A stretch of DNA of 4,231 bases. It comes from a virus (taxonomy: Duplodnaviria; Heunggongvirae; Uroviricota; Caudoviricetes). Each line of letters opens with the position of its first letter. Position 1 is the first letter of the stretch. The notes under the pieces are model-generated. The model was not told the DNA's origin and made no database searches. It saw nothing but the letters and a program-made list of their open reading frames with translations. The stretch is from the IMG/VR virus record IMGVR_UViG_2778260979_000026; one strand, given 5' to 3'. Below are positions 1-1,327 of the stretch, piece by piece. The position numbers and the translations under genes were made by a program.

Positions 1-282
1 ACTGCGCATACGGGCCACCAGCAGAGGCGGCATTGCCTTTTCGATCGCCGGTAACAGAGCCTGCATTTTTTCAACAGCATCAGGGGTGTCTTTATCCAGC
101 CAACGGAAAATTTTCTGGGTATTACGAGCCAGGGCTTCCGGATGGCTGTCGTCGTACAGTTCCGGGAACGTCATCCCCAGTTCGAAATAAGTCCGGGCTA
201 TTTCAGCTGCAGGAACTTTCTCACCATCAGGATATGCCCAGGCATTCATCGCCATGCGGATGTGCTCATGTTTGATTTTCAT
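1..282 (-). CDS. ydaT: YdaT-like prophage regulatory protein, N-terminal part only; the gene runs off the left edge of the window
   Basis: Hand translation of the minus strand from ATG at 282..280 gives MKIKHEHIRMAMNAWAYPDGEKVPAAEIARTYFELGMTFPELYDDSHPEALARNTQKIFRWLDKDTPDAVEKMQALLPAIEKAMPPLLVARMRS, open to position 1. It is absent from the ORF track because there is no stop in the window. The N-terminus matches my recollection of Rac prophage YdaT (memory, not a search). A GAGG lies about 10 nt upstream of the ATG. The start overlaps the 3' end of the ydaS-like gene by 17 bp. The + strand ORF 33..275 is its antisense shadow. Confidence 0.7.
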   Translation of the reverse strand, partial: MKIKHEHIRMAMNAWAYPDGEKVPAAEIARTYFELGMTFPELYDDSHPEALARNTQKIFRWLDKDTPDAVEKMQALLPAIEKAMPPLLVARMRS

Positions 283-589
283 GAATCATTTGCCTCTTGA
301 TGCTTCGGGTATGATCGTTTTCGTCATTTGGTTGCTTCATCGACATATTCTGCGAATAACATGACGAGCGTCGTAAGTATGTCCAATCAACATCAGGACG
401 AAGTTCTTCACACAGGACACCACCTTTTGTTGCTCGTTCAATCGCAGGACATCTCTCAGCAGGCAACTGACGTACACCTTTGATCCATTGATTTACGCTT
501 GGAGGAGATACACCTAAAAGCCTAGCCATTGCTGATTGCCCACCGACAACAGCACAAGCTCGTTTGAATGAATAGTTATCTTTTTTCAT
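266..589 (-). CDS. ydaS: Cro-like helix-turn-helix DNA-binding protein (YdaS family)
   Basis: The ORF track protein contains MKKDNYSFKRACAVVGGQSAMARLLGVSPPSVNQWIKGVRQLPAERCPAIERATKGGVLCEELRPDVDW, which matches Rac YdaS closely from memory. I chose the ATG at 589..587, which has a GGAG about 7 nt upstream on the minus strand, over the track start at 610. It is divergent from racR across an operator region. Confidence 0.85.
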   Translation of the reverse strand: MKKDNYSFKRACAVVGGQSAMARLLGVSPPSVNQWIKGVRQLPAERCPAIERATKGGVLCEELRPDVDWTYLRRSSCYSQNMSMKQPNDENDHTRSIKRQMIHENQT

Positions 590-618
590 CGAATGAACTC
601 CAAAAAACACACAATAAT

Positions 619-687
619 ATTAGGCTTAGCCTAATGCAATTGTCAATAGGCTATGCCTAACACTTCGAGAGTAGGCATTGCCTAATG
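619..687. promoter_or_regulatory. OR-type operator cluster and divergent promoter region between ydaS and racR
   Basis: Three spaced inverted repeats of the form TAGGC-N3-GCCTA: ATTAGGCTTAGCCTAAT at 619..635, TAGGCTATGCCTA at 647..659 and TAGGCATTGCCTA at 672..684. A perfect -35 TTGACA lies on the minus strand (+ coordinates 646..641) with TAATAT 18 bp downstream, pointing at ydaS. An AGGAG at 698..702 precedes the racR ATG. Confidence 0.7.
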
Positions 688-713
688 CGATGCGCATAGG
701 AGACTATTAAGCA

Positions 714-1190
714 ATGCTTAGTGGTAAAGACTTAGGCCGAGCGATAGAGCAGGCCATTAACAAAAAAATTGCATCAGGAGCCGTCAAATCAAAGGCGGAA
801 ATCGCACGTCATTTCAAAGTCCAACCACCATCAATCCATGACTGGATTAAGAAAGGTTCGATAAGTAAAGACAAACTTCCAGAACTATGGCGTTTCTTTT
901 CTGATGTGGTTGGTCCAGAGCATTGGGGGCTTAACGAATACCCCATACCAACCCCATCCACTTCAGATACAAAAAGTGAACTTTTAGACATAAACAGCCT
1001 TTATCAAGCCGCCTCTGATGAAAAAAGAGCAATTGTGGCTTTCCTCTTATCTGGAAATGCTACGGAGCCTAGTTGGGTTGATCATGACGTTCGTGCCTAC
1101 ATTGCCGCAATGGAAATGAAGGTAGCTAACTATCTGAAAAATCAAGAATCAAAACGGAAAAGCCAGAACATCACCAAGACAGGAACTTAA
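714..1190 (+). CDS. racR: Prophage repressor RacR (CI functional analogue)
   Basis: The 158-aa product MLSGKDLGRAIEQAINKKIASGAVKSKAEIARHFKVQPPSIHDWIKKGSISKDKLPELWRFFSDVVGPEHWGLNEYPIPTPSTSDTKSELLDINSLYQAAS... is near-identical to E. coli Rac RacR as I recall it, at the same length. It is divergent from the cro-like gene and flanked on both sides by operator palindromes. Confidence 0.9.
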   Translation: MLSGKDLGRAIEQAINKKIASGAVKSKAEIARHFKVQPPSIHDWIKKGSISKDKLPELWRFFSDVVGPEHWGLNEYPIPTPSTSDTKSELLDINSLYQAASDEKRAIVAFLLSGNATEPSWVDHDVRAYIAAMEMKVANYLKNQESKRKSQNITKTGT

Positions 1191-1283: not shown

Positions 1284-1327
1284 ATTAGGCGTAGCCTATT
1301 GACAAGCAATTAGGCATTTCCTATAGT
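1284..1327 (+). promoter_or_regulatory. OL-type operators overlapping a near-consensus sigma70 promoter (pL analogue) reading rightward
   Basis: -35 TTGACA at 1299..1304, a 17-bp spacer, then -10 TATAGT at 1322..1327. Operator-like palindromes ATTAGGCGTAGCCTATT (1284..1300) and TAGGCATTTCCTA (1312..1324, one mismatch) overlap the -35 and the spacer/-10. A weaker half-site TATTAGGT lies at 1265..1271. Confidence 0.65.

Follow-up and report, generated by a model that had tools for sequence, protein, structure and literature searches.

The 124 bp separating ydaS from racR in this Rac-like prophage very probably represent the right-operator region of a Rac-type immunity switch, with a set of palindromes bound by the repressor RacR. 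Three of these palindromes lie within positions 590-713 of the window, by which we mean the whole 4,231 nt stretch of DNA analysed, and they are the already published RacR operators of the Rac prophage; the initial annotation, which picked them out from the letters alone, was a correct rediscovery. As the operator code has already been published, it provides no new biology. What extends beyond the published work consulted is confined to a further pair of operators downstream of racR and a comparison of three with four right-operator sites between relatives and Escherichia Rac. In E. coli carrying Rac, RacR belongs to the small group of essential transcription factors, its loss unleashing both the toxicity of YdaS and YdaT and the excision of the prophage.

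The window belongs to a Rac-like prophage of E. coli O157:H7, and is 100% identical to the sequence of strain PA20, in which the prophage is found beside potC. The identification of the flanking genes as ydaS and racR, with 590-713 as the region between them, was borne out by Pfam, NCBIfam, RefSeq and the positions of the start codons: the ATG of ydaS occupies 589-587 on the minus strand and that of racR begins at 714, leaving exactly 590-713 as intergenic sequence. The ydaS product matches the Pfam families YdaS_toxin (3.8e-30, 103.9 bits) and P22_Cro (1e-8). RacR scores 246.8 bits against the NCBIfam equivalog NF049929, the cut-off of which is 200, and is 92% identical to the K-12-type protein; a Pfam search matched it to no family, Peptidase_S24 included, and it has no relative by sequence among solved structures. 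Beyond racR are found a DUF1391 gene, a reverse-strand ORF and a truncated exonuclease gene, followed by xis and int. The features of the ydaS-racR switch are as follows.

1-282, minus strand: ydaT, clipped by the edge of the window (Pfam YdaT_toxin, 39.7 bits)
266-589, minus strand: ydaS, encoding a Cro-like HTH regulator of 107 aa (Pfam and RefSeq annotation)
272-289, unstranded: YdaT-box-like inverted repeat TTGATT-N6-AATCAT, TTGATTTTCATGAATCAT, over the ydaT start codon
617-646, minus strand: ydaS-ydaT promoter, PR-like, with -35 TTGACA at 646-641, an 18-nt spacer and -10 TAATAT at 622-617 (promoter scan)
619-635 (core 621-633), unstranded: operator A, ATTAGGC-TTA-GCCTAAT, a perfect 17-bp palindrome
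645-661 (core 647-659), unstranded: operator B, AATAGGC-TAT-GCCTAAC (motif scan; conserved in 41 E. coli alleles)
670-686 (core 672-684), unstranded: operator C, AGTAGGC-ATT-GCCTAAT, overlapping the inferred racR -35
678-705, plus strand: putative leaderless racR promoter, PRM-like, with -35 TTGCCT at 678-683, a 16-nt spacer and -10 GAGACT at 700-705
706-722 (core 708-720), unstranded: operator D, TAAGC-AAT-GCTTA, a weaker palindrome with the racR ATG at its centre
714-1190, plus strand: racR, encoding a prophage repressor of 158 aa (NCBIfam NF049929 equivalog; annotated as racR by RefSeq)

A RacR orthologue is therefore encoded beside the operators, a divergently oriented gene for YdaS, a Cro-like HTH protein, is followed by ydaT, repeats of the form (T/A)TAGGC-N3-GCCTA(T/A) occupy the published intergenic positions, and the ydaS promoter, TTGACA-18-TAATAT, is overlapped by an operator. 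Judged by its sequence, the locus belongs to the Rac-type immunity regions, as every feature that defines the type at this level is present.

The window was scanned for TAGGCNNNGCCTA, allowing at most one mismatch, with 200 shuffled versions serving as the null. Five matches were detected, against 0.09 expected from shuffling, and none of the 200 shuffles reached five; elsewhere in 13.7 kb of the prophage there was no further match. Within 590-713, the perfect matches are the cores of operators A (621-633, TAGGCTTAGCCTA), B (647-659, TAGGCTATGCCTA) and C (672-684, TAGGCATTGCCTA), with steps of 26 bp from A to B and 25 bp from B to C, whether measured from start to start or between centres; three evenly spaced palindromes had been described, and this is what is found. 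Operator A is orthologous to the K-12 site TAGGCGACGCCTA. The half-site all three were said to share, (A)TTAGGC, is less uniform than proposed: the extended form TTAGGC is present in four of the six half-sites, the exceptions being the left halves of B (ATAGGC) and C (GTAGGC). A lone TTAGGC half-site is also found at 732-737, around 25 bp deeper into racR than operator D.

These three palindromes had been likened to the tripartite right operator of lambda. The analogy with lambda stands, as it does in the published accounts, but the number of sites does not, there being four between the repressor and cro genes (starting at 621, 647, 672 and 708) rather than exactly three. The fourth, operator D, is 36 bp from site C and just past the 3' limit of the 590-713 interval. 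It corresponds to the published O3, which is protected at high RacR concentrations (PMC9638921), and its position, 0 relative to the repressor ATG, is occupied in every relative examined.

On the ydaS side, the relationship between operators and promoter is as first described, with one palindrome lying over the -10 and spacer of the leftward promoter and another abutting its -35. Two nt of the -10 (four if the AT flank is counted) and 11 of the 18 spacer nt are covered by site A, whilst the first base of site B is the neighbour of the -35. The K-12 ydaS promoter, defined by primer extension and mutagenesis, has identical hexamers and spacing (PMC9638921). A terminator-like match at site A on the minus strand was rejected as being no more than the palindrome itself, at a position upstream of the ydaS start. 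The racR promoter was placed by alignment with K-12 and by the published -10 of PracR3, GAGAAT (PMC9638921), the assignment of the -35 being our own, and transcription would start at or near the ATG at 714. The -10 in this allele, GAGACT, is weaker than the K-12 hexamer, and the -10 of K-12 PracR2 (AGTAAG) maps to the linker between B and C (661-671), which is hypervariable among alleles and in which this hexamer is not conserved here; hence racR promoter usage may differ from that in K-12.

In K-12, the 123-bp racR-ydaS region was reported by Krishnamurthi 2017 to contain three variant GCCTAA/TTAGGC repeats, and was likened to lambda (PMC5700373). In EMSA, RacR formed three complexes with K-12 DNA and one with a 49-bp fragment containing a single repeat, and in the same work it was enriched in ChIP-qPCR and repressed a ydaS reporter (PMC5700373). 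Wisniewska 2022 mapped the ydaS promoter and three racR promoters, one of them leaderless, and presented a DNase I footprint of RacR with the logo ATTAGGC and operators of the form (T/A)TAGGC-n3-GCCTA(T/A), protection being seen over the ydaST promoter region at the lowest concentration and over that of racR as the concentration rises (PMC9638921). In K-12, RacR dimers occupy the strong sites of the ydaS promoter before any others and block it, and with more RacR extend over the racR promoters, which are thereby autorepressed. A 2023 paper described four inverted repeats and, from size-exclusion chromatography, an octamer of RacR (PMC11014345). The prediction that the palindromes are RacR sites, for which a comparison with published binding data had been suggested, is hence confirmed for K-12 by EMSA, ChIP-qPCR, footprint and logo (PMC5700373, PMC9638921). 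The boundaries of the K-12 sites are not sharp, as the footprints are broad and the authors count nine possible monomer boxes. YdaT and OxyR also bind and protect the same Rac intergenic region (PMC11879457), such that the sequence by itself cannot assign all of the footprints.

By homology, the O157 allele is expected to behave like its K-12 orthologue. The genes of the two switches are orthologous, the ydaS promoters have the same hexamers and spacing, the intergenic regions are 87% identical and all six sites, including the pair downstream of racR described below, are found at the same offsets from the racR ATG (-87, -61, -36, 0, approximately +580 and approximately +605). They differ in the N3 spacers (TTA here where K-12 has GAC, and TAT where K-12 has TGT) and linkers, in site C, which has TAGGG in K-12 and is perfect here, and in the racR -10, GAGAAT in K-12 and GAGACT here. 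The prophage analysed here also differs in adjoining potC and in being without sieB, kilR, racC and recET. The early-left region of K-12 Rac (sieB, kilR, ydaE, racC and recET) is absent, the affected stretch being 1773-2810; this is occupied by a reverse-strand ORF with CxxC pairs (1773-2288) and a 3'-5' exonuclease gene, truncated at the N terminus and annotated as a pseudogene (approximately 2409-2810).

Natural variation in the switch was surveyed in 88 loci, comprising 41 distinct E. coli-type intergenic alleles. Within 611-700, just 3 of the 30 columns in half-site cores are variable, against 32 of the 50 in spacers and linkers (Fisher p = 1.8e-6, a value that is indicative rather than exact because the alleles are related by descent and the test overstates their independence). 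The promoter hexamers are almost invariant across the 41 alleles. This distribution is indicative of purifying selection on the half-sites, with natural variation seeming to confirm which bases are constrained. At position 676, the last base in the left half of site C, 36 alleles have G, three have T and two have C, whilst most relatives from other genera have A. Most other alleles have TAGGG, TAGGA or TAGGT where this one has the perfect left half of C; with a C at 676 in only two of the 41, the perfect version is a minority allele. Site C is thus normally imperfect, as expected of a deliberately weaker operator.

Outside Escherichia, the operator code was followed beside homologues of the RacR N-domain, 57-78% identical to it, from Mixta, Proteus, Klebsiella, Achromobacter, Nitrosomonas, Klebsiella phage KpF5 and 15 viral contigs. 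Scans of viral contigs led by RacR or its N-domain returned near-identical E. coli loci only, and the divergent set was obtained from a re-ordered alignment. The motif TAGGC-N3-GCCTA is present at matching offsets beside these homologues, even where they have a Peptidase_S24 C-terminal domain. In the Achromobacter-type repressors, an N-domain around 78% identical to that of RacR is fused to Peptidase_S24 (LexA/CI-type), with the same operator code and layout; the retention of one code alongside a different C-terminal domain points to domain shuffling inside a single immunity specificity. The Achromobacter-like prophages and phage KpF5 resemble Rac in their TAGGC-N3-GCCTA code, in N-domains that are 57-78% identical and in a distal pair 25 bp apart, and differ from it in having three right-operator sites, not four, and, in the Achromobacter type, in the Peptidase_S24 domain.

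Counted from the repressor ATG, the relatives each have exactly three right-operator sites, at approximately -60, -36 and 0, whereas there is a fourth in Escherichia Rac, the sites of which are found at -87, -61, -36 and 0. In the relatives, site 1 falls in the spacer and -10 of the promoter on the cro side, site 2 abuts the -35 and site 3 is on the start codon of the repressor gene, a trio that corresponds to the published O1-O3. The extra unit in Escherichia Rac is 25-26 bp in size and falls within 645-686, where the single middle site of the relatives corresponds to B and C together; operator B has no separate counterpart in the distant relatives. On this comparison, A, B and C are neither the complete set of sites nor the conserved trio, which is made up of the sites on PydaS and on the ATG with a single site in between. 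In Pseudomonas phages vB_PaeS-D14H and VW-6S (approximately 53% N-domain identity), only the ATG site keeps TAGGC...GCTTA; their remaining palindromes have drifted, for instance to TAAGGC-ATT-ACCTTA, which marks the limit of the shared code.

Further operators, with a promoter, are found downstream of racR.

1286-1298, unstranded: distal operator 1, OL-like, TAGGC-GTA-GCCTA, TAGGCGTAGCCTA, a perfect match, its final base adjoining the -35 of the downstream promoter
1299-1327, plus strand: putative PL-like promoter, TTGACA (1299-1304), a 17-nt spacer and TATAGT (1322-1327), with 11 of 12 consensus matches
1311-1323, unstranded: distal operator 2, OL-like, TAGGC-ATT-TCCTA, TAGGCATTTCCTA, with one mismatch, in the promoter spacer

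The two distal operators are 25 bp apart, the second overlapping the -10 by 2 nt, in an arrangement that is the mirror image of A and B on the ydaS promoter. The promoter is directed toward the DUF1391 gene, xis and int. Across 37 E. coli alleles of this region the half-sites are conserved and the hexamers invariant in nearly all, and it is the N3 spacer and the linker that vary. Pairs spaced at exactly 25 bp recur 580 to 3870 bp downstream of the repressor gene in Mixta, Proteus, Achromobacter, KpF5 and the viral contigs, 13 of 15 in the last case, with the other two contigs ending too early to show one. Together, pair and promoter look like an equivalent of OL and PL; this second operator set at a distant early promoter, a characteristic of lambda-type switches, is recognised at the sequence level only. 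A candidate third distal site at 1262-1274 was not counted, having three mismatches and being around 20 bp off phase. Also around 20 bp upstream of distal operator 1 is the sequence CCTATTAGG (1262-1270), which is invariant in nearly all E. coli alleles.

No description of a Rac OL/PL or of the distal pair was found in the Rac literature consulted, an earlier account in subscription journals being possible; published Rac work calls the RacR regulon uncharacterised, and ascribes the octamer to the four intergenic sites. Depletion of RacR raises the expression of Rac early-left genes 40-70-fold or more, the induced genes being ydaG, ydaF, kilR, racC, recET and xis/int (PMC11014345; bioRxiv 10.64898/2026.09.06.749655). 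The OL/PL reading of the distal pair fits this induction, and operators at a strong promoter in this position would directly explain why early-left genes (in K-12, kilR, recET, xis and int) are derepressed. As a counterpoint, the silencing of kil has been partly credited to a Rho terminator in racR (PMC4150792). The terminator trac has been published for the racR region of K-12, and in this window the distal operators are flanked by C-rich, G-poor tracts at 1220-1279 and 1310-1369 (GC skews of -0.66 and -0.50, respectively), which may be Rho-loading sequences.

The switch would be expected to work as follows. RacR, a two-domain HTH repressor, would bind as dimers to the 13-17-bp palindromes (T/A)TAGGC-N3-GCCTA(T/A). 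A and B bracket the near-consensus leftward promoter, where bound RacR would exclude RNA polymerase and so silence ydaS and ydaT, with their Cro-like and CII-like products, together with the replication genes further on. Over the leaderless racR promoter, C (at the -35) and D (at the start point and ATG) would be filled at higher RacR concentrations, resulting in negative autoregulation. Early-left transcription of the DUF1391 gene, xis and int is most likely repressed through the distal pair, much as lambda PL is through OL. The 25-26-bp spacing would permit pairwise cooperation through the C-terminal oligomerisation domain, and an octamer of RacR could bridge two pairs of sites approximately 665 bp apart.

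The distal pair hence offers an alternative reading of the octamer. It is conceivable, although we consider it less probable than not, that the switch as a whole consists of six operators and two promoters, in which the distal pair is the OL of the PL-like promoter; the octamer would then bridge A and B with the distal pair across a loop of approximately 665 bp, as does lambda CI, rather than occupy the intergenic four, and the additional Escherichia site would split a dual role like that of OR2 between the lytic and the repressor promoters.

The palindromes might instead be mainly operators of YdaS, YdaT or OxyR, with RacR reading something else in the region. Over 29 aa of the HTH region, including the recognition helix and the motif PPS(I/V)xxWIK, YdaS is 41% identical to RacR, such that recognition of TAGGC half-sites by YdaS is plausible; in prophage CP-933P the footprints of YdaS and PaaR2 overlap (PMC8630535), and YdaT and OxyR do bind the Rac intergenic region (PMC11879457). 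However, the RacR footprint and logo coincide with the repeats, and a fragment with a single repeat gives a single RacR complex (PMC9638921, PMC5700373). The YdaT consensus, TTGATT-N6-AATCAA, is unrelated to the TAGGC palindromes (PMC9986795), no palindrome was found by the authors in the part that YdaT protects, and the TAGGC motif follows the RacR N-domain from one genus to another. A primary role for these other regulators is therefore improbable, whilst it is possible that YdaS shares the sites, which would be compatible with their being RacR operators.

Still less probable is that the inverted repeats act as RNA hairpins, as an attenuator in the racR leader or as DNA cruciforms, rather than as protein binding sites. 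The RNA fold of 611-713 has an energy of -32.8 kcal/mol (z = -3.3) and site A is a minus-strand hit in a terminator scan, but low folding energy is automatic with palindromes, the stems would be just 5-7 bp long with loops of 3 nt, and site A is upstream of the ydaS transcription start. No match was detected in Rfam. Among the 41 alleles, none of the half-site variants (at positions 625, 655 and 676) has a compensatory change on the opposite arm, and the pairing partner of 676 never varies, leaving this pair broken in most alleles, which argues against a hairpin function. In spite of the z score, the RNA-structure reading was rejected on the Rfam result and this uncompensated variation. That a short palindrome simply clustered by chance in AT-rich intergenic sequence is barely credible: only the shortness of the core, with its 10 specified bases, speaks for it, and it is refuted by the failure of any of the 200 shuffles to reach the observed count, by the pattern of allelic variation and by the conservation of the positions across genera. 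RacR operators hence remain the preferred explanation of the palindromes.

In lambda, the operators are 17 bp long and spaced at 23-24 bp. The Rac switch is alike in having palindromic operators, 23-26 bp apart over the two systems, on both divergent promoters (A and B on the ydaS side and, partly by our own assignment, C and D on the racR side), in having high-affinity sites on the lytic promoter and weaker ones on the repressor promoter, and in the second operator set at a leftward-type promoter. Also common to the two are divergent repressor and cro-like genes, a leaderless repressor mRNA and an octameric repressor (PMC9638921, PMC11014345). The Rac operator differs in being a 13-17-bp palindrome of 5-N3-5 form, with four sites where lambda has three, and in K-12 reporters YdaS represses its own promoter and leaves racR unrepressed, unlike lambda Cro (PMC9638921). 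RacR has no LexA/CI-type S24 autocleavage domain, there being no Pfam match of any kind, and RecA-stimulated autocleavage is therefore not expected; activation of the OR2-PRM type is doubtful, as site C is on the racR -35 and not beside it. Given four sites, a repressor without the S24 domain and no Cro-type repression of racR, the region falls short of a strict lambda-type tripartite OR.

The CP-933P switch of E. coli O157:H7 (PaaR2-YdaS-YdaT) shares its gene order, YdaS and YdaT included, with Rac; its intergenic region contains four palindromes at equal spacing, a PL/OL analogue has been identified and the repressor is octameric (PMC8630535). Its repressor, PaaR2, and its operator, with the consensus half-site GTTTAGTAA, are unrelated to those of Rac (PMC8630535), and it hence represents a different immunity specificity. 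The inverted repeat over the ydaT start codon, TTGATTTTCATGAATCAT, has one mismatch to the YdaT box TTGATT-N6-AATCAA, a match that alone is not significant; both the consensus and the position of the box have been published (PMC9986795, PMC11879457), and the repeat would be a component of this switch, with YdaT exerting feedback of the CII type. Whereas K-12 has a gap of 22 bp between ydaS and ydaT, the two genes share 17 nt here.
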